From Escherichia phage AV117: DNA of 64,000 nt. Where the stretch lies: sequence record OR352947.1; one strand, written 5' to 3'. Below the pieces are notes generated by a model. It did not search any database, was not told where the DNA came from, and saw only the letters and a list, made by a program, of their open reading frames with translations. Positions 25,700 through 36,443 of this stretch are shown in pieces. Both the position numbers and the translations under genes were made by a program. Every line of letters starts with the position of its first letter. The stretch's first letter is position 1.

Positions 25700-26065
25700 T
25701 TATTTACGGAATGAAAGGAATGCTGGTGCTCTGAATGGAGTATCATCTTTAGAGTATTTAACTAATACGACCATTGGTACCTCTGTTTCTAAATGACCTG
25801 TCACTACACCGACAAAAATTTGATCAGTGTGCTCAGGGTCACGAAAGTTTTTAAGAGGTTCCATAGCAATATGGAATGCACCTGGGAATACTCGATTCAA
25901 TTCGTCAATCACGGCTTCGTTAAAAACATCATCCGCTGGGATAACATCTTCAACTACTAGTTCTTGACCATTAAAGCGAAGCATAGATTTCATAACGTTT
26001 TCCTCATGTTGTTGATGGGATGATAGTATCACACATCCATGTGTTTGTAAACTATCCTTGGACAA
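25700..26065 (-). CDS. hypothetical protein downstream of alt
   Basis: 121 aa ORF overlapping the alt stop; T4 alt.-1 position. Confidence 0.5.
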   Translation of the reverse strand: MSKDSLQTHGCVILSSHQQHEENVMKSMLRFNGQELVVEDVIPADDVFNEAVIDELNRVFPGAFHIAMEPLKNFRDPEHTDQIFVGVVTGHLETEVPMVVLVKYSKDDTPFRAPAFLSFRK

Positions 26066-28139
26066 ATTTAAACGGAACCGATTCTAAATCCATTAAAGAT
26101 GCTAACAATTTCAATCCTTTAGGAGCACTAGTTTTTTCTACAAATGAGGAGAACGATACCAGCTCATCTGATTCGATTTCACCCGTCATAGCAACCACCT
26201 CGCCTGTTTCCATGAGAACATCACCATCGTAAATGACAGCTTCGTCCAACTGGTCTGAGGACATGACTTCAGCTTGAATAAATTTAAGGTTGGATTCTAA
26301 ACCTGCACCAGTGTCAGATGACGCATCTGTAATTTTATTTATCTGTAAGAGAATGCCTCTAGGCAAAATAATTTCTTGCTCATTAGGGTGATTACTCAAC
26401 TGGCCTGGATAAATCACGTTAACTTTATGAGCGCCATCAATAGCCCATCCAACGTTAACACGGATTTGGTCTGGTGCATGCATAGCTGTTCTTACTTGAC
26501 TAGGAGAAATAGTAACACCTTCGTCATTATTGTCAATGTTAAGCTCTTTGCGAACTTCTTCAGGAGCAAGTCCAAGGGCAACGTTCTCTTTAAACCCACC
26601 GAAAATAATAGGAGCTAGTGAAGTGGAAACATAGTTTCTGAAGTAGAATACCTTATTTTTAACCATTGCTTCGTAAATAGGCATTCTGATAGACTGAGCT
26701 CTATATAACGTTAGTCCTTCAGGTAAACGGTCTCCATTTAAAAACGCCGAATCAAGACCATCAATAGCGCGTTTAACTTCATCTTCATCTGCAACATCGT
26801 AAAAATCTGGTTTATAACGACCTAACAACATATTATTGATATCGGTATACGCAGAAGAGGCATATTCACGAATAGCTCGTTTTTCAGCAACAGAGTATTG
26901 TTTAGGGTCCCGATTCATTGTTATATTAAAGGTGCCTCTAGCCGATTCTCGTGCATAAGTATACATCACATTAGACAAGAACGCTGATTTACGTTGTTTC
27001 CAAGTTCTTTCAGATACTTCAGCTAAAACATCGTCAGGCAGTTGGAAATTATCACGTCTAAAATCTTCAAACCATTCGTCTCTAATAGAGTCTGCAATTT
27101 CGTTTGCAGCTTCAACAAAAGCGGCTAATGCTTTAACAGATGTTGTTTTTTCAGTTTTAATTTTCTTAGCAAACTTTTCTAAAGTCGGCTTAATAACACT
27201 ACCATAAGAAACTTCATCAGCAAATTTAAAGGATTCATCAATACGATTATAAATCTTATTTTCGATATCAGCAACTAAAGTGCCTTTTGCTGTGGACGAT
27301 GCTTGGGCTAGTACAATTTCATATGCTTCAGGAAGTAATTCGGCTGTAGCTGGGCCGCTAACTTCTTTAGCAGAATTTTCGTATTTCTGGAATAACTCAC
27401 CTTCTTGACGGTCAGCTTCTAAAGATTGACTTGCTGCAATAGCACGACGAGAAATTTTAGTACGAGCAATAACAGGCTTATCTTTACGTTTTTCTTCTAC
27501 AGCAGCAATAGAACCAGCGATAGCTGTTTCTTTGGTGACCGTTTCGCCAGTCTTTTTACTCACATAAACTTCGCCAACATCAGAATCTACTTTCGTGTAC
27601 AACTCTGTGTTAATGTTAGGGATGCCTTTAATATCTTCAATGTTGGCATTTTTACGAACCATCATCACATAGGTATGTTTACCTGTGAATTGATACATTG
27701 CCGACAATACTTTAAAACGACCACCGGTTTTAGTAGAAACTAAACGAGCAAGAAGAGTTTGAAGTTGTTGTCCACGTCCTTTCAATTTCTTGGTAGGGAA
27801 TCGGAACAGAACTGCATCCATACGAAGAGCTTTAACCTGTTCATATACTGTATTGAAAATGGTGTTGATTGCATCAATAGGAGCAGGACCAAGGCCGTTT
27901 TTCAATTCAGCGAGATTACCCTTTTCAGACAGACTCATAATAACAACATGAGCGTATTTGTCGCCAAGTTTAACTTGTTTTACAGCATCGCCTTCAGAAA
28001 GGTAAGAGAATAAGCGAACTACGATGTTTGTATCGATATCACCAATTTTCCAGACTTGTGGAACTTTAGCTTTAGGGTTCAAATTGACGACAGGAAGACT
28101 GCCTTCAGATTCAAACACTTCATTTAATTGTTCAGACAT
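26052..28139 (-). CDS. alt: Alt ADP-ribosyltransferase (packaged, modifies host RNA polymerase)
   Basis: 695 aa; C-terminal ART signature R (LYRAQSIRMP), STS (YVSTSLAP) and EQE (NEQEIILP); synteny next to gene 30. Confidence 0.9.
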   Translation of the reverse strand: MSEQLNEVFESEGSLPVVNLNPKAKVPQVWKIGDIDTNIVVRLFSYLSEGDAVKQVKLGDKYAHVVIMSLSEKGNLAELKNGLGPAPIDAINTIFNTVYEQVKALRMDAVLFRFPTKKLKGRGQQLQTLLARLVSTKTGGRFKVLSAMYQFTGKHTYVMMVRKNANIEDIKGIPNINTELYTKVDSDVGEVYVSKKTGETVTKETAIAGSIAAVEEKRKDKPVIARTKISRRAIAASQSLEADRQEGELFQKYENSAKEVSGPATAELLPEAYEIVLAQASSTAKGTLVADIENKIYNRIDESFKFADEVSYGSVIKPTLEKFAKKIKTEKTTSVKALAAFVEAANEIADSIRDEWFEDFRRDNFQLPDDVLAEVSERTWKQRKSAFLSNVMYTYARESARGTFNITMNRDPKQYSVAEKRAIREYASSAYTDINNMLLGRYKPDFYDVADEDEVKRAIDGLDSAFLNGDRLPEGLTLYRAQSIRMPIYEAMVKNKVFYFRNYVSTSLAPIIFGGFKENVALGLAPEEVRKELNIDNNDEGVTISPSQVRTAMHAPDQIRVNVGWAIDGAHKVNVIYPGQLSNHPNEQEIILPRGILLQINKITDASSDTGAGLESNLKFIQAEVMSSDQLDEAVIYDGDVLMETGEVVAMTGEIESDELVSFSSFVEKTSAPKGLKLLASLMDLESVPFKFVQG

Positions 28140-28196: not shown

Positions 28197-28404
28197 AATC
28201 CACAATCGGGAGCAAAGTACGATAAACTTCAAAATTAGGGCCTTTTTCGTACTTATCAAAATTGTCCATAAAAATACGATAGGAATCGTTATTAGGAAAA
28301 TCTAATATAATCTGAGAGCAAGAGGTGGAAACATCTCCACCATCCTTCTTAGCTACAATAACTGTTTCTAAATAAGCTTTCATTATAAACCTGTCTGGGA
28401 CCAC
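28195..28404 (-). CDS. hypothetical protein
   Basis: 69 aa ORF overlapping the ligase stop; hairpin terminator at its 3' end. Confidence 0.45.
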   Translation of the reverse strand: MVPDRFIMKAYLETVIVAKKDGGDVSTSCSQIILDFPNNDSYRIFMDNFDKYEKGPNFEVYRTLLPIVD

Positions 28405-29876
28405 GGTCCAAATACGTCTTCAAATGAATCCGCTTCTGTTTTATCAAAACGGAACCCTTTAATAATTGGAAGGAAAATACCTACAGTGCCTTCACGGCCT
28501 TTAGAATGAACCCAACCATTACATTCACAATCAGCGATACGTCCAATTAATTTACCTTCACGAGCTTCGGCCATTAATCGTTCACGGTCTAAATCATGAC
28601 GCTCGTCTAAAGGAATAAGAACCTTTACACCATCAACTGTTTTATGAGTTGTATCTTTAAAACCTGAACCACAATCGGTTGTAATACGTCGACAACGTGA
28701 TACGAGTTCGACACCACCTAATTTGTTAGGGTCTTTAGAGTGTTCATAGTATCCTACAACTTCTAAAGCGATATCAATAACTTCTTTAAATTTAATTAGG
28801 TTCTTAGATCGTTTGTTTTCCCAATATGAATCACGGTTTTTAAGGATAATACCTTCAAGACCTTGGTCAACATATTTTTTATAAACCACTTTAGCTTCGT
28901 CAAGATTACGAACTAACTGATTTTCAATTGGTTCAATTCGCTTAAAGCCTTCAGCCATATTTTCAAGAGCGGCAAAACGAACATCGTATTTCTGACCTTT
29001 AATTTTGCCATCAGAATAGACTTCATCTAAAGGAACATAGTCCCAGGCTTGAAGAACCATACCTTCCGCTTCTTTAGGAGAAATAGTCCCTTGAAGAGAT
29101 TTATTTGCTAAACCATTTGAAGTGCTACGGTCTGCAACTTGTACTTCTTCTGATTCTTCATTATCACCAAATAAGAACGACAGGTCATTTCCTGAGCTCA
29201 CAGCCTTTTTAATATCAAATGAATGATAAACTAATTCACCGTCGATTAAAACCCCATTAGGGTGTCTTTCACGAGCTTCTTTAGTCATTTCCATTAGTTC
29301 ATCCGCTAATAGAGTAAGACCATGGTATTCGTTACCGGCACGAGAAAAGAATTGAACACCATCATCGCGAACTTCAGCGAAACAACGAGCACCATCTGCT
29401 TTTAATTGGGCAAATGCGGGCCATTTAATATTTTTAGTAATCAATTTCTCATCATATGCAGATGCTAACATCTGTGGTTGCAATTGAATAAGTCCAGGCC
29501 ACACCTTATTCGCGATAGACACTGAAGCACCTACTTCAAGGTCGCGCATCATTACACGACGAAGGACTTCTACATCATCAGGTTTACCGTCCGCGATATA
29601 ACCCATGAGCTCTTTAATTGCAGCATTACCAGTGAGTTTACGAGTGGCTAATGTGAACTCAATAAAATCCAACATGTCGTCTAATTCAAGAAGTCCATAT
29701 GCTTGAGACCTTTCACCCGGTCCTGGCCATTTCTTAATATAATACTGGATACCACGTGCATATGTTAAACGATACACACGTTCAAGTAATTTGTTGTCCT
29801 TATTTTTCTTAAGGATTTCTTGTTTTGTTTTAGTAGAACCGATCGCAGCTATTTGGTTTAAAATATCTAAAATCAT
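28383..29876 (-). CDS. 30: ATP-dependent DNA ligase
   Basis: 497 aa; adenylation motif KADGAR; T4 ligase size and position. Confidence 0.95.
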   Translation of the reverse strand: MILDILNQIAAIGSTKTKQEILKKNKDNKLLERVYRLTYARGIQYYIKKWPGPGERSQAYGLLELDDMLDFIEFTLATRKLTGNAAIKELMGYIADGKPDDVEVLRRVMMRDLEVGASVSIANKVWPGLIQLQPQMLASAYDEKLITKNIKWPAFAQLKADGARCFAEVRDDGVQFFSRAGNEYHGLTLLADELMEMTKEARERHPNGVLIDGELVYHSFDIKKAVSSGNDLSFLFGDNEESEEVQVADRSTSNGLANKSLQGTISPKEAEGMVLQAWDYVPLDEVYSDGKIKGQKYDVRFAALENMAEGFKRIEPIENQLVRNLDEAKVVYKKYVDQGLEGIILKNRDSYWENKRSKNLIKFKEVIDIALEVVGYYEHSKDPNKLGGVELVSRCRRITTDCGSGFKDTTHKTVDGVKVLIPLDERHDLDRERLMAEAREGKLIGRIADCECNGWVHSKGREGTVGIFLPIIKGFRFDKTEADSFEDVFGPWSQTGL

Positions 29877-30142
29877 TTGATGTCCTCGATTTTGGTTACG
29901 GTTCTATTATAAGCCACTTCATCTAGAAGCGATTTCAGCGTTTTCTGATAAGTGGTAATCCATTTACCGAGACCTTCAACATAATATTCTGAGATGTAGA
30001 TGAACCCTTGTTCAACACACTCTTTAAATATTTCTGCGTCTTTTACTGAACGAAACAATGGCCAGTCTCGAAAGAACATGTTAACGTGACCGTAGTCACG
30101 CGTTGTGTTTTTGCCATCTGTAATATCATGAACTACAAACAT
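29873..30142 (-). CDS. hypothetical protein (30.1 position)
   Basis: 89 aa, ATGA-coupled to ligase. Confidence 0.6.
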   Translation of the reverse strand: MFVVHDITDGKNTTRDYGHVNMFFRDWPLFRSVKDAEIFKECVEQGFIYISEYYVEGLGKWITTYQKTLKSLLDEVAYNRTVTKIEDIK

Positions 30143-30151
30143 AATTAACCC

Positions 30152-30967
30152 TTAACAATTTGTAGACCAAGTCCATTTGGACGAATCTAAAGGAAAGTTT
30201 TGAATCGTCCACCATGGCTGCATATTGGTTGGTCCTGGGGTTCGCCAGGTATACGGATTCGACGGAGTGCCAATTTGATTAGGCCATGCACCTGGACTTG
30301 TTGCACCAGATTCTTTAAGCAAATCCGCCAATCGTTTTAAAAGGTCTTCACGATCTGAATTTGAATTATGCTCTGGTGGAACCAAACGAGATTCAATATC
30401 ATCCCATGTGTGTACACGTTGTGCAGTACGAGGAATATCATCACGTTCACCACGAGCCAACCAATAAATCGGTACATTAAGAATTTCTGCTGCATGGTCA
30501 CAGTGATGAGCTAAATCGTCAACGTAACAAATCACATTATATTTTGTTTTAGCTAGTTCGAATAATTGTTCCTTTGAAGAATCATGTCCACACATCATTA
30601 CTTCAGAAAAGGCGCCTGGGAACAAAGCATTCAAATTAAATTGTCTATTCAATCGAGCATCAATTGAATCACCTAGCGCCGTCACGGCTACAAAATTATA
30701 GTCTTCTTTTAGTTTATTGATAACTCGAAGAGCATCCGAATAAGGCGCTAAGTAACGAATAAAATCAGAGCGATTATATTTTTCTATTAATTGTTTACCG
30801 AGGTTATCGTCGGTATTGAATAGTTTACCAGGAGAAATAAATTTTTCGTCCTGAATCATTTTTAAAATATGTTCTAATGGAAGATTATATTTTTGGGCAA
30901 AATAAGGAAGTCCAGATTGCCAGCTTAAACATACACCATCAATATCAGTCAAAATAGTAGGTTTCAT
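30152..30967 (-). CDS. HAD-like hydrolase domain protein (30.2 position)
   Basis: 271 aa; N-terminal ILTDIDGV resembles HAD motif I (DxDG); Trp/Pro-rich C-terminus. Confidence 0.6.
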   Translation of the reverse strand: MKPTILTDIDGVCLSWQSGLPYFAQKYNLPLEHILKMIQDEKFISPGKLFNTDDNLGKQLIEKYNRSDFIRYLAPYSDALRVINKLKEDYNFVAVTALGDSIDARLNRQFNLNALFPGAFSEVMMCGHDSSKEQLFELAKTKYNVICYVDDLAHHCDHAAEILNVPIYWLARGERDDIPRTAQRVHTWDDIESRLVPPEHNSNSDREDLLKRLADLLKESGATSPGAWPNQIGTPSNPYTWRTPGPTNMQPWWTIQNFPLDSSKWTWSTNC

Positions 30968-31431
30968 AAAGAGTCTCTTAATAGGTTTAACACATCAATA
31001 AATTCAGCTTCGGTTAGTATTGTATCATCTTTTGTTAGACCGCTAGCCATGCTGTGCTTCAAAACTTTTCCTTTCGAGGCTTGTAATGCATCGCGAAAGC
31101 CCTTGTTTTGGATCGCTGCTTCAAAATATGCATTTGTATACAACTCTTTCCATGCTGCAGAGTATCTTGAAAAGGGAACTCCAATCCAGAAGAGGGTCCC
31201 ACGGTCCTGAGCTCTAGCATAAGCTCGTCCAGCTTGTTGGGCGGCAAGCCCGGATAACCCAAATATACGTCTTTGCTGTTCAACATTTTTCACCTTACAT
31301 CCTTGAAGGAATCCTTCGAGACCTCCGAATTGAATACCATCCATAACAAAAGGCCATTGGGCGAAATTACTTAATGCGCATGACGGCCATTTGAAATTGC
31401 TTCTTATTTCTAATTCAGACATCTTTAACAC
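30964..31431 (-). CDS. NADAR/YbiA-like (DUF1768) protein, 30.3 position
   Basis: 155 aa; LSNFAQWPF matches the YbiA SNFAAWP signature; coupled to the upstream ORF. Confidence 0.65.
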   Translation of the reverse strand: MLKMSELEIRSNFKWPSCALSNFAQWPFVMDGIQFGGLEGFLQGCKVKNVEQQRRIFGLSGLAAQQAGRAYARAQDRGTLFWIGVPFSRYSAAWKELYTNAYFEAAIQNKGFRDALQASKGKVLKHSMASGLTKDDTILTEAEFIDVLNLLRDSL

Positions 31432-31633
31432 TTATAATTTCAACATCAGCCCAATGGCCGTATCCAGGTATACGGTCTTCGATAGATAAATTTCCGTCAT
31501 TTTTAGGCATTTTAATTGACGTAACGTATGGTTCTAAACGGTTTTCTGCATAATATGGAAAAACGTCTGTTACACGATAAGTAACTTCGATCATTTCCAT
31601 ACCAAACAATTTCTGGATTAATTTATTCAACAT
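31415..31633 (-). CDS. hypothetical protein
   Basis: 72 aa ORF in the early 30.x block. Confidence 0.5.
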   Translation of the reverse strand: MLNKLIQKLFGMEMIEVTYRVTDVFPYYAENRLEPYVTSIKMPKNDGNLSIEDRIPGYGHWADVEIISVKDV

Positions 31634-31820
31634 GTTTCAACCCTTTAATAGGAGATAACTCTTTACCCATACGTATGTCAGAAGTCCAATCAACCCATTG
31701 AACAGCATACGCTTCATTGATAATTCCAGCGGCGGTTTTAAATTCAGGGAGAACTTTAAAAATCACCCCAGGAATTCCAACACCTTTTAATTGGACTGTT
31801 TGTGCTATTAAAAATTTCAT
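31623..31820 (-). CDS. hypothetical protein
   Basis: 65 aa ORF in the early 30.x block. Confidence 0.45.
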   Translation of the reverse strand: MKFLIAQTVQLKGVGIPGVIFKVLPEFKTAAGIINEAYAVQWVDWTSDIRMGKELSPIKGLKHVE

Positions 31821-31874
31821 ATTTTTCCACTTACTAAAGAAATCATTATACTCTAATCCGTCCTTGGATGTAAA

Positions 31875-32489
31875 CTACTTAATGAAATTAATTTCTACCG
31901 GATGAACAACAGGTTGAGCAGTGATATATTGAGTAACTGCTTTCATGACTAGAGCTTCAGAACCAGGATTTTTCTCAACGAATTCACGTGCTTGGTTATG
32001 AGCTTCAAGTTCACTTAGTAAACCACTTCTTTGGCATCCACGGTCTTGAGTACCCTGTTCAGATAAAAAGGCGACGATGTATTTTTCATCGTCATACGGT
32101 TTAGGCAGTTGAGCAAATGTTCCTTTACTTCCAAAAGGAGAGTTATGACGCCACATCACACCGTGAGGAGTTTCAACCTTCGTATATTCATGTGGGCCAT
32201 TTTTCTTAGTTTCTTGATGTGGAACTTCGTAGACCTTAGTGTTAGGACATTCAATAAAATGCTCATCTAAATCGGTCGAGAATATTAAAGTAAAACAATG
32301 CCTGAATTTACCAACACCTGCCTGATAAATTTTACCTTCAGAAGTTCTAATTTCACAAACCGAGCCGGCATCAGTAACTTCTAAAACTTCAAAAGGCTCG
32401 ATAAGGTCATATGAGAACATGTTTTTAAGGCGTGGAGTAATATCCCCATTTTTAAAATTCATTTTATAAAAAGTATTAACTTTAAACAT
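31875..32489 (-). CDS. hypothetical protein
   Basis: 204 aa ORF, no recognisable motif. Confidence 0.6.
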   Translation of the reverse strand: MFKVNTFYKMNFKNGDITPRLKNMFSYDLIEPFEVLEVTDAGSVCEIRTSEGKIYQAGVGKFRHCFTLIFSTDLDEHFIECPNTKVYEVPHQETKKNGPHEYTKVETPHGVMWRHNSPFGSKGTFAQLPKPYDDEKYIVAFLSEQGTQDRGCQRSGLLSELEAHNQAREFVEKNPGSEALVMKAVTQYITAQPVVHPVEINFIK

Positions 32490-34880: not shown

Positions 34881-35451
34881 AAAAGTTTCGGATTTGTTCC
34901 CAATTCAGAGAACGAAGATTATTACGAGAGTACTGAATTACTTCAATACCAGCTTGTTTTAGAATGTCTGCCCAATTTTCAGGAGATCGGTCATATAATT
35001 CTGCATATACAACCTTTTTAATACCTGACTGTGTAATAGCTTTAGTGCAATCAGGACATGGAGAAAGTGTCGTATACAACGTAGCACCTTCAATAGAATT
35101 ACCTTTACGAGCTGCAAACAAAATTGCATTCAGTTCCGCATGGATTTCGTTATTAGCGGACCATGCACTATGAGCAGCCCGATGTTCTTTAGCCAAAACA
35201 AAATTATCGGCCCGTCCAAATGCTGTAGTGCCTTCTTTATGCCCAGCAACGATGACTGGGATTGGTTTATTCTTCAACCAACCATTTTCAGATGCATGTT
35301 CGCAACAGTTAACGCCACCTGCAGGTGAACCGTTATACCCAGTAGAAATAATGCGCCCATCTTTTTCAATGACTGCGCCAACTTTCCATGAACAACATTT
35401 TGATTCTTGAGAAATCAGATATGCAATCTGAAGGTATGTGCTAGCTTTCAT
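34870..35451 (-). CDS. cd: dCMP deaminase
   Basis: 193 aa; zinc motifs HAELNAI and PCPDC; T4 Cd length. Confidence 0.95.
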   Translation of the reverse strand: MKASTYLQIAYLISQESKCCSWKVGAVIEKDGRIISTGYNGSPAGGVNCCEHASENGWLKNKPIPVIVAGHKEGTTAFGRADNFVLAKEHRAAHSAWSANNEIHAELNAILFAARKGNSIEGATLYTTLSPCPDCTKAITQSGIKKVVYAELYDRSPENWADILKQAGIEVIQYSRNNLRSLNWEQIRNFCGE

Positions 35452-36443
35452 TATTGAACCTTATTAATATAAGTTAACAGCTCTTTAGTTTGTTCCCAAC
35501 TGATGCACGCATCGGTAACGGAAACGCCATAGGACATATTATCAGAAATTTTTTGATTTCCTTCATGTAGGAATGATTCTATCATAATTCCTTTGACCAA
35601 ATCATTAGCTGCTAAATTTTTACCAATACCAATTTGATTGCTATAATGACCATCAGCGTTTGCATGGCTACAGTCAACCATTACATAATGATTCAGACCT
35701 ACTGCCCTTGCTTTGTTAGAAGCTTCTTGAATATCAGAAGAATGATAGTTCGGGCCGTTGGTCCCGCCACGCAATACGATATGCGTATTCTGATTACCTT
35801 CAGCTTCAACAATGCCTACAGTACCATCGACGTCCATACCCATATACCGATGAGGCCAGGCGGCACTATACATCGCGTCTGTAGCTACTTTAATAGAACC
35901 ATTGGTTGCGTTCTTGAAGCCTACGCACATCGGTAGACCTGAAGCAATTTCACGATGTGTCTGACTTTCAGTCGTACGGGCGCCAATAGCAACCCATGAG
36001 AAAATACCAGAAAGATACTTAATCGTGAATGGGTCTAATACTTCAGTTGCTAATGGAAGTCCCATACGTAGAAGTTTACGACACAATGTTCGTGCAACTA
36101 TAAGACCGTGGTTCATATCAAAACTTCCGTCAAGATATGGATCATTTACAAGACCTTTCCAACCTACGGTAGTTCGAGGCTTTTCAAAATAAACGCGCAT
36201 CACTAACAGAACATTAGGAAGACGAGTTTGAAGTTCAGCCAGACGTTTGCCGTATTCAACAGCAGCAATAGGGTCATGAATTGAACAAGGACCTACAACA
36301 ATAAGTTTGCGTGGGTCTTCACCGTTCATAATCGAATTAACTTGTTCGCGATGAGAAGCCACTTGTGATGCGTAAGCTTCCGACAAAGGAATAATCTCAG
36401 CCAGTTCTTTTGGAGAAATAAGTTTTCTGATGACAGGTAACAT
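35451..36443 (-). CDS. 3-deoxy-7-phosphoheptulonate (DAHP) synthase, class I (AroG/AroF/AroH-like)
   Basis: 330 aa; blocks GPCSIHD, KPRTTVGWKGL, IGARTTESQ, DCSHANA, IESFLHEGNQ, VTDACI match class I DAHP synthase; stop overlaps cd start (TAATG). Confidence 0.88.
   Translation of the reverse strand: MLPVIRKLISPKELAEIIPLSEAYASQVASHREQVNSIMNGEDPRKLIVVGPCSIHDPIAAVEYGKRLAELQTRLPNVLLVMRVYFEKPRTTVGWKGLVNDPYLDGSFDMNHGLIVARTLCRKLLRMGLPLATEVLDPFTIKYLSGIFSWVAIGARTTESQTHREIASGLPMCVGFKNATNGSIKVATDAMYSAAWPHRYMGMDVDGTVGIVEAEGNQNTHIVLRGGTNGPNYHSSDIQEASNKARAVGLNHYVMVDCSHANADGHYSNQIGIGKNLAANDLVKGIMIESFLHEGNQKISDNMSYGVSVTDACISWEQTKELLTYINKVQ

Follow-up and report, generated by a model that had tools for sequence, protein, structure and literature searches.

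Predicted AdfN and HAD phosphatase genes lie side by side in a Mosigvirus-type phage, very probably as independent early functions rather than a counter-defence module

A T4-like, Mosigvirus-type phage (Escherichia phage AV117, sequence record OR352947.1, of which a stretch of 64,000 nucleotides, hereafter the window, was analysed) carries, upstream of its DNA ligase gene, two adjacent open reading frames that correspond as orthologues to genes 30.2 and 30.3 of T4. It is very probable, mainly by analogy with T4, that they are independent early genes, with 30.3 encoding AdfN, which would de-ADP-ribosylate DNA, and 30.2 encoding a HAD phosphatase that is dispensable on hosts carrying DarTG1. The two T-even-type genes would thus be co-transcribed neighbours that came to be adjacent by chance. 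AdfN would act as a stand-alone NADAR N-glycosidase that severs the link of ADP-ribose to guanine bases, and by removing the ADP-ribose that DarT1 puts on phage DNA it would allow replication to proceed in DarTG1 hosts; gp30.2 would be a HAD phosphatase that depends on Mg and carries a helical C1 cap. The original prediction had treated the pair as a candidate counter-defence module against DarTG-like toxins, which is not borne out, considering that 30.2 carries no fitness cost on DarTG1 in T4 and that the two genes are neighbours in only 5 of 22 NADAR lineages. Its proposal for the NADAR gene is not new because the anti-DarT function of gp30.3 was already known, having been published in 2024-2025. 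The main claim is therefore one already established for T4, to which the window adds a near-identical and apparently functional copy of adfN.

T4 gp30.3 was renamed AdfN (anti-DarT factor NADAR) by Johannesman et al. [quoted passage not shown] In the same study, the natural DarTG1 sensitivity of phage RB69 was traced to the insertion of a T at nucleotide 411, which truncates the last 15 residues of gp30.3, and RB69 x T2/T4 chimeras were selected on DarTG1 in the laboratory. Protection by AdfN did not extend to uninfected cells or to phages outside the T-even group, and the authors postulated an unidentified T-even factor (PMC11825919). An independent study found that gp30.3 hydrolyses guanine-ADP-ribose but not thymine-ADP-ribose on single-stranded DNA, and that the residue in the last strand differs among NADAR types, being His in phage gp30.3, Glu in YbiA and Asp in DarT1-linked proteins (Toxins 2024, PMC11125620). 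Loss of 30.3 insertions on DarTG1 has also been reported in a T4 transposon-sequencing preprint (bioRxiv 10.1101/2025.11.20.689424).

Over the region 29800-31700, the window shares 98.7% identity with Escherichia phage GADS24 and 96-97% with many Mosigvirus records. The genes of the locus are all encoded on the minus strand and follow the order that is standard for T4, alt-alt.1-30-30.1-30.2-30.3(-30.4). Both members of the ORF pair were confirmed at the positions previously described, and homologues are recorded in phages about 1,500 times for 30.3 and about 1,440 times for 30.2, which shows that they are not chance ORFs. The features of the locus are listed in Table 1. The 155-aa ORF (30964..31431) given in the original prediction is a mechanical ORF that begins at a GTG at 31431; the gene is real, and its length should probably be corrected to 152 aa. 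The ATG at 31422 is likely to be the true start because the gene is annotated in this way in T4 and in phage S143_2, and because the published numbering of E36 and K43 fits only then. Translational coupling of 30.3 and 30.2 had also been proposed, in agreement with which the junction is a 4-nt overlap (TCTTTATGAAACC) with the stop codon TGA contained within ATGA. Most of the Mosigvirus records examined carry these genes under the label "hypothetical protein", which could be replaced by adfN for 30.3 and by HAD phosphatase for 30.2.

Table 1. Positions in the window of the genes and sequence features of the 30.2-30.3 locus
Feature	Coordinates	Strand	Evidence or remarks
alt	26052..28139	-	ADPrib_exo_Tox E 7e-28
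gene 30, ATP-dependent DNA ligase	28383..29876	-	Pfam
gene 30.1 (DUF3045)	29873..30142	-	Pfam
gene 30.2, predicted HAD-superfamily phosphatase, 271 aa	30152..30967	-	residues 1-222 folded core plus helical C1 cap; residues 223-271 disordered Trp/Pro-rich tail
HAD motif IV, D150-D151	30515..30520	-	alignment and translation
HAD motif III, K132	30572..30574	-	alignment and translation
HAD motif II, T96	30680..30682	-	alignment and translation
HAD motif I ILTDIDGV, residues 5-12 (D8 predicted nucleophile, D10 predicted general acid/base)	30932..30955	-	invariant Asp pair
ATGA stop/start overlap of 30.3 and 30.2	30964..30967	-	same junction in T4
gene 30.3/adfN, predicted NADAR-family DNA ADP-ribosylglycohydrolase, 152 aa	30964..31422	-	PF08010, T4 identity, AF2 model, Foldseek; function predicted from sequence and by analogy
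C-terminal helix of 30.3, last 15 residues	30967..31011	-	protein and DNA alignments
His123, last strand, marker of the phage gp30.3 NADAR clade	31054..31056	-	invariant; translated
predicted catalytic Lys43	31294..31296	-	invariant; translated
predicted catalytic Glu36	31315..31317	-	invariant; translated
SNFAQWP motif, NADAR N-terminal strand/loop, residues 18-24	31351..31371	-	translation; homologue alignment
gene 30.4, function unassigned, 72 aa	31415..31633	-	PHROG 2042 E 5e-35; 8-nt overlap with 30.3 start, as in T4
promoter-like (G)TTTACA-18-TATAAT	31845..31874	-	11/12 consensus positions; consensus match only; upstream of 30.5-like ORF

Sequence profiles and structure prediction indicate that 30.3 encodes a NADAR-superfamily enzyme of the gp30.3 (AdfN) clade. 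The protein is matched by the full-length Pfam family PF08010 (Phage_30_3; profile positions 1-138, 230.8 bits against a cut-off of 36, E 5e-69), and the Pfam NADAR family PF08719 was matched by 21 of 59 diverse homologues (best E 1.5e-7). A search of PDB sequences with the single 30.3 sequence gave no match, and NCBIfam contained no usable match for the 30.3 or the 30.2 protein. The profile built from the 59 homologues had one significant match among PDB sequences, E. coli YbiA (2b3w, E 0.005), in which the SNFA motif, the Glu and the Lys were aligned. SNFAQWP aligns with FSNFAAWP of YbiA, and S18, N19 and F20 are invariant among the 59 homologues, as are E36, K43 and H123, the last of which lies in strand 120-123 of the model. 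The AF2 model itself is of high confidence (pLDDT 93.8, pTM 0.89), and its top three Foldseek matches in the PDB are NADARs, namely YbiA (2b3w, E 7e-5, TM 0.68), PnNADAR of Phytophthora with ADP-ribose (8bau) and the NADAR of Geobacter lovleyi (8bat), with no other fold found at E < 1. The earlier reading of SNFAxWP as a YbiA/NADAR signature thus agrees with the HMM searches, the predicted fold and the catalytic residues, and both the NADAR fold and E36, K43 and H123 are present in the window protein.

The closest characterized relative is T4 AdfN, which is 97% identical over all 152 residues and for which the proposed reversal of DarT-type guanine ADP-ribosylation has been published. The two share E36, K43 and H123, the C-terminal helix, the gene order 30.4-30.3-30.2-30.1-30 and the gene overlaps, whereas the window protein differs by five substitutions and is encoded on a Mosigvirus-type rather than a Tequatrovirus backbone. 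RB69 has the same genus-level backbone as the window phage, and its gp30.3 represents a natural loss-of-function allele, in which the extra T after nucleotide 411 leads to a stop and the last 15 residues are missing. This insertion is absent from the window in both protein and DNA alignments, and the C-terminal 15 residues are identical to those of T4. Because of the 97% identity to the T4 orthologue, the conserved catalytic residues and the intact C-terminus, we infer that the window phage carries a working AdfN and that, unlike RB69, it would be resistant to DarTG1. The DarT1-associated NADAR of G. lovleyi (8bat) and PnNADAR (8bau) resemble the window protein in fold (Foldseek probability 0.97-1.00) and in the catalytic Glu and Lys, and the reaction that they carry out on guanine-ADP-ribose is the same as that of AdfN and, by analogy, probably that of the window protein. 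Compared with DarT1-linked NADARs, however, the window protein has no N-terminal extension and no paired toxin, and its last strand bears His where theirs has Asp; moreover, AdfN has been reported not to serve as an antitoxin in uninfected cells. YbiA is the best structural match, but proteins of its type carry Glu at the last-strand position and serve a housekeeping function in riboflavin metabolism.

The DNA around adfN has an uneven relationship to the two reference phages. An island of approximately 620 bp, extending from about 31450 to about 30825 and spanning 30.3 entirely, together with the 3' end of 30.4 and about 140 nt at the start of 30.2, is about 92% identical to T4 (85-98% within the island), whereas its flanks are only about 65% identical (range 52-80%; 64% for 30.4, 63% for 30.1 and 65% for the ligase gene). 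The pattern is reversed in comparison with RB69, to which the flanking genes are 97-98% identical and 30.3 is 89% identical (92.6% to T4), the identity falling to 72-83% over 31303-31184, a segment that is still 92% identical to T4. Such an island suggests that adfN alleles have been exchanged in nature by recombination between T-even genera, which would parallel, in the field, the laboratory selection of RB69 x T2/T4 chimeras on DarTG1. An exact-match scan of IMG/VR detected the RB69-type frameshift allele in no case and the intact allele in four, the T-even contigs being too few for an estimate of allele frequency.

Gene 30.2 encodes a predicted HAD-superfamily phosphatase, whose membership in this superfamily rests on motifs and fold because no curated HAD model passes its cut-off (HAD_2 15.5 bits against 23.8; NCBIfam E 0.09). 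The protein belongs to PHROG 420, a family of unknown function (E 8e-79). Among 53 homologues, D8 and D10 of motif I, T/S96 of motif II and K132 of motif III are each present in all 53, and D150 and D151 of motif IV are each present in 52. In the HAD family, the second Asp at position +2 marks phosphatases and not dehalogenases. The AF2 model is confident for residues 1-222, in which a helix bundle (16-72) directly after motif I forms a C1-type cap, and residues 223-271 are disordered. The earlier identification of ILTDIDGV as HAD motif I was therefore sound, with an intact DxD, four conserved motifs, and a predicted HAD core with a cap. Helical C1 caps are typical of small-molecule phosphatases, DNA-end phosphatases being capless, and the substrate of gp30.2 is most likely a small phosphorylated molecule, our best guess being a (deoxy)nucleoside monophosphate.

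A search with the gp30.2 model by Foldseek retrieved 105 HAD structures at E <= 1e-3, and the top matches included 5'(3')-deoxyribonucleotidases of mouse and human as well as a deoxyribonucleotidase-like protein of S. epidermidis, 3bwv (best target-normalised TM 0.62-0.70), although nucleotidases were not separated from dehalogenase-type and other HAD enzymes in this respect. The Pfam family NT5C was weakly matched by 10 of 53 relatives (best E 0.002) and not by the window protein itself. Searches of PDB sequences with the gp30.2 family profile yielded no significant match, and those with the single sequence only non-significant ones, one of which (mouse 5'(3')-deoxyribonucleotidase 2jao, D12N variant, E 0.8) aligns its NMDGV with motif I. 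Compared with the 5'(3')-deoxyribonucleotidases (cdN/mdN 2jao, 2i7d and 1mh9; S. epidermidis 3bwv; NT5C), gp30.2 is 13-17% identical and has an additional disordered tail of ~50 residues. The resemblance of gp30.2 to these enzymes is thus not decisive, and a literature search on gp30.2 returned nothing relevant.

Published transposon data for T4 allow for an assessment of which genes of this region are needed on DarTG1. The sheet for this system was recognized by its position (after the RnlAB sheet, in which dmd is depleted, and before that of S8) and by the depletion of 30.3, and not by a header. Insertions in 30.3 fell from a count of 261.0 to 0.7 (log2FC -7.25, adjusted p 0), while those in 30.2, spread over 71 TA sites, were essentially unchanged (mean counts 271.5 and 249.8, log2FC -0.12, p 0.61) and also gave a log2FC of -0.10 in M9 versus LB. 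By analogy with T4, 30.2 is thus dispensable for DarTG1 counter-defence, with the reservation that in a pooled screen of this kind redundancy could mask a role, and an anti-defence annotation of the HAD gene is unwarranted. Insertions in 30.4 were partly depleted (log2FC -1.79, adjusted p 0.014), those in 30.5 gave a noisy and non-significant value of -3.0, and those in 30.6 one of -0.30. The depletion in 30.4 and 30.5 is most simply read as polarity on 30.3, and gp30.4 may also contribute in its own right. For DarTG2, a single gene, tk.4, has been reported.

The alt gene had been brought into the same picture by the original prediction, which placed ADP-ribose-handling functions on both sides of the ligase gene with Alt about 3 kb away. 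The position is correct, with the ligase gene and alt both lying on one side of the 30.2/30.3 pair; a functional link is not supported, the arrangement being one of synteny. Alt was rejected as a functional partner considering that it is an arginine-specific protein ADP-ribosyltransferase, that its location follows standard T4 synteny and that it has no DarTG1 phenotype in T4 (log2FC -0.01). Nothing was found to connect Alt, which modifies arginines of host proteins, with guanine de-ADP-ribosylation.

Gene linkage across phage lineages was analysed from both sides. The NADAR-centred set comprised 80 IMG/VR loci around gp30.3 homologues, in which grouping of the NADARs at 70% identity gave 22 lineages. 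A 30.2 homologue was located directly downstream of the NADAR gene in 14 of the 80 loci, and 59 of the 79 loci with at least 900 nt of downstream room lacked a 30.2 homologue in the 6 kb to each side. At the level of lineages, the NADAR gene had a HAD gene as neighbour in 5 of 22 and a ligase gene in 6, and 17 of 22 had no HAD gene within 2.5 kb; 30.2-30.3 adjacency was limited to T-even-like lineages. When a conserved neighbour that might represent a potentiating factor was sought, no family was adjacent in more than 6 of the 22 lineages, and the top cluster of neighbours was rejected as an antisense artefact inside the NADAR gene. These counts imply that the NADAR gene is a stand-alone, movable gene. 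The HAD-centred set comprised 77 loci around 30.2 homologues, representing 27 HAD lineages. A ligase gene was present within 6 kb of the HAD gene in 71 loci and started within 700 nt downstream of it in 21 lineages; in several lineages, the end of the HAD gene and the start of the ligase gene abut or overlap (offsets -4 to +3 nt, based on alignments). A NADAR gene was adjacent in 8 of the 27 lineages. The HAD gene has its conserved genomic partner in the DNA ligase gene and not in adfN.

Several alternatives to independent genes should be considered. Cooperation between gp30.2 and AdfN, in which gp30.2 would be the missing T-even factor, for which its position makes it an obvious candidate, or would dispose of the released ADP-ribose or a phosphorylated derivative of it, could account for the ATGA overlap within a common transcription unit, for the full activity of AdfN only during T-even infection, for which its discoverers postulated a phage factor, and for the intact gp30.2 (99% identity to the window's) of RB69, a phage in which AdfN supplied ectopically is functional; in addition, the first 51 residues of gp30.2 are encoded within the same conserved DNA island as adfN. 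Nevertheless, a gene whose product was needed by AdfN would hardly remain undepleted on DarTG1 over 71 TA sites when 30.3 is lost, and both the absence of adjacency in 17 of 22 lineages (2.5 kb) and 59 loci (6 kb) and the lack of any conserved neighbour of the NADAR gene among the 22 lineages argue in the same direction, so that we regard cooperation as highly improbable. An equally faint prospect is that the NADAR protein acts mainly on soluble substrates, such as ADP-ribose-derived immune signals or, like YbiA, riboflavin intermediates. YbiA is its best fold match, and ADP-ribose derivatives of low molecular weight were argued to be the main targets of phage NADARs in a survey by comparative genomics (PMC9503650); on the other hand, the T4 orthologue is active in vitro on ADP-ribosylated DNA and has a DarTG1-specific phenotype, and its clade has His where the YbiA type has Glu.

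The linkage data raise another possibility, namely that gp30.2 is a dedicated partner of the DNA ligase, either as a DNA-end 3'-phosphatase that readies nicks or as an enzyme acting on a ligation-related nucleotide such as AMP. Consistent with such a role, the HAD gene is linked to a ligase gene in 71 of 77 loci and, by lineage, in 21 of 27, several of which have stop and start codons that abut or overlap; T4 Pnk and mammalian PNKP, through their HAD domains, provide a precedent. However, the HAD-ligase order may be inherited T4-core synteny, the predicted C1 cap fits small-molecule phosphatases and not capless DNA-end phosphatases, Pnk is already present in T4, and there are better fold matches to gp30.2 than 1ltq. 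Furthermore, the ligase is essential on K-12, whereas 30.2, like 30.3, is non-essential in that host. A role as ligase partner therefore appears unlikely, and less likely still is the idea that the T-even factor required by AdfN is gp30.2, or else gp30.4, the small protein encoded upstream.

For the independent early genes favoured here, a common origin of transcription can be proposed. The promoter-like site listed in Table 1, whose -35 element resembles that of T4 early promoters, is a candidate for the early promoter that would drive the run 30.5-30.4-30.3-30.2-30.1-30.

A DNA island of approximately 620 bp surrounding adfN (30.3, the NADAR-family gene; window 30825-31450) shares 85-98% identity with T4, whereas the genes flanking the island are only 52-80% identical to their T4 counterparts. 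Within 30.3 itself, the segment at 31184-31303 is 92% identical to T4 vs 72-83% to RB69, the backbone relative of this phage. Because a T4-like island lies within diverged flanks and this segment is nearer to T4 than to RB69, the sequence comparison suggests that adfN alleles have been swapped between T-even genera by natural recombinational exchange. In addition, adfN contains an ORF in another frame corresponding to T4 30.3', which is a product of internal translation in a different frame, and this ORF may have been retained solely through the strong conservation of adfN DNA.

Upstream of adfN, the gene for the 72-aa gp30.4 overlaps it by 8 nt. In published transposon data for T4 on DarTG1, the bacterial defence countered by AdfN, insertions in 30.4 showed partial depletion, with a log2FC of -1.79 at an adjusted p of 0.014; the log2FC of -3.0 for 30.5 was not significant. 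Depletion of 30.4 and 30.5 is likely to be caused by polarity on 30.3; a cofactor role of gp30.4 is a conceivable alternative. Judged from its sequence, a promoter-like site, GTTTACA-18-TATAAT (see the table), may act as an early promoter driving the gene run from 30.5 to the ligase.

Coordinates of features in the window
Feature	Position	Strand	Remarks
Trp/Pro-rich C-terminal tail of gp30.2, residues 223-271	30152-30300		predicted disordered
75-aa ORF in another frame within adfN	31059-31286	-	counterpart of T4 annotated 30.3'
30.4 and 30.5-like ORF	31415-31820		
Promoter-like site GTTTACA-18-TATAAT	31845-31874	-	near-consensus, 11/12 matches; just upstream of 30.5-like ORF
204-aa ORF	31875-32489	-	PHROG 17531, E 1.5e-144
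Class I DAHP synthase, full-length	35451-36443	-	NCBIfam aroFGH, E 1.4e-128

On the other side of adfN, an ATP-dependent DNA ligase gene is nearly always found directly downstream of the 30.2-type HAD gene (window 28383-30967): among the 77 IMG/VR loci centred on 30.2 homologues (L084-L160), 71 have a ligase gene within 6 kb, and in 21 of the 27 lineages it starts no more than 700 nt downstream, the HAD stop and ligase start codons abutting or overlapping in some of them. This adjacency may reflect either synteny by inheritance or a functional link. The C-terminal tail of gp30.2 is hypervariable across lineages and missing from many homologues (176-230 aa long), and a GIGTGIEYLNRQPT-like motif is common to some tails of the family. 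One metagenomic homologue of 302 aa (P0016; three member sequences, with the representative recorded on a single 1.4-kb contig) combines the 30.2 HAD core and the DUF3045 domain of 30.1 in one protein, which is either a true fusion of these neighbours or an artefact arising from assembly or from a frameshift.

T4 and RB69 carry a 30.6 gene between 30.5 and 30.7; in the window, this slot holds the PHROG 17531 ORF. Elsewhere in the window, a dCMP deaminase gene adjoins the gene for DAHP synthase, an enzyme of aromatic amino-acid biosynthesis, and the same DAHP synthase annotation is present in phage S143_2.
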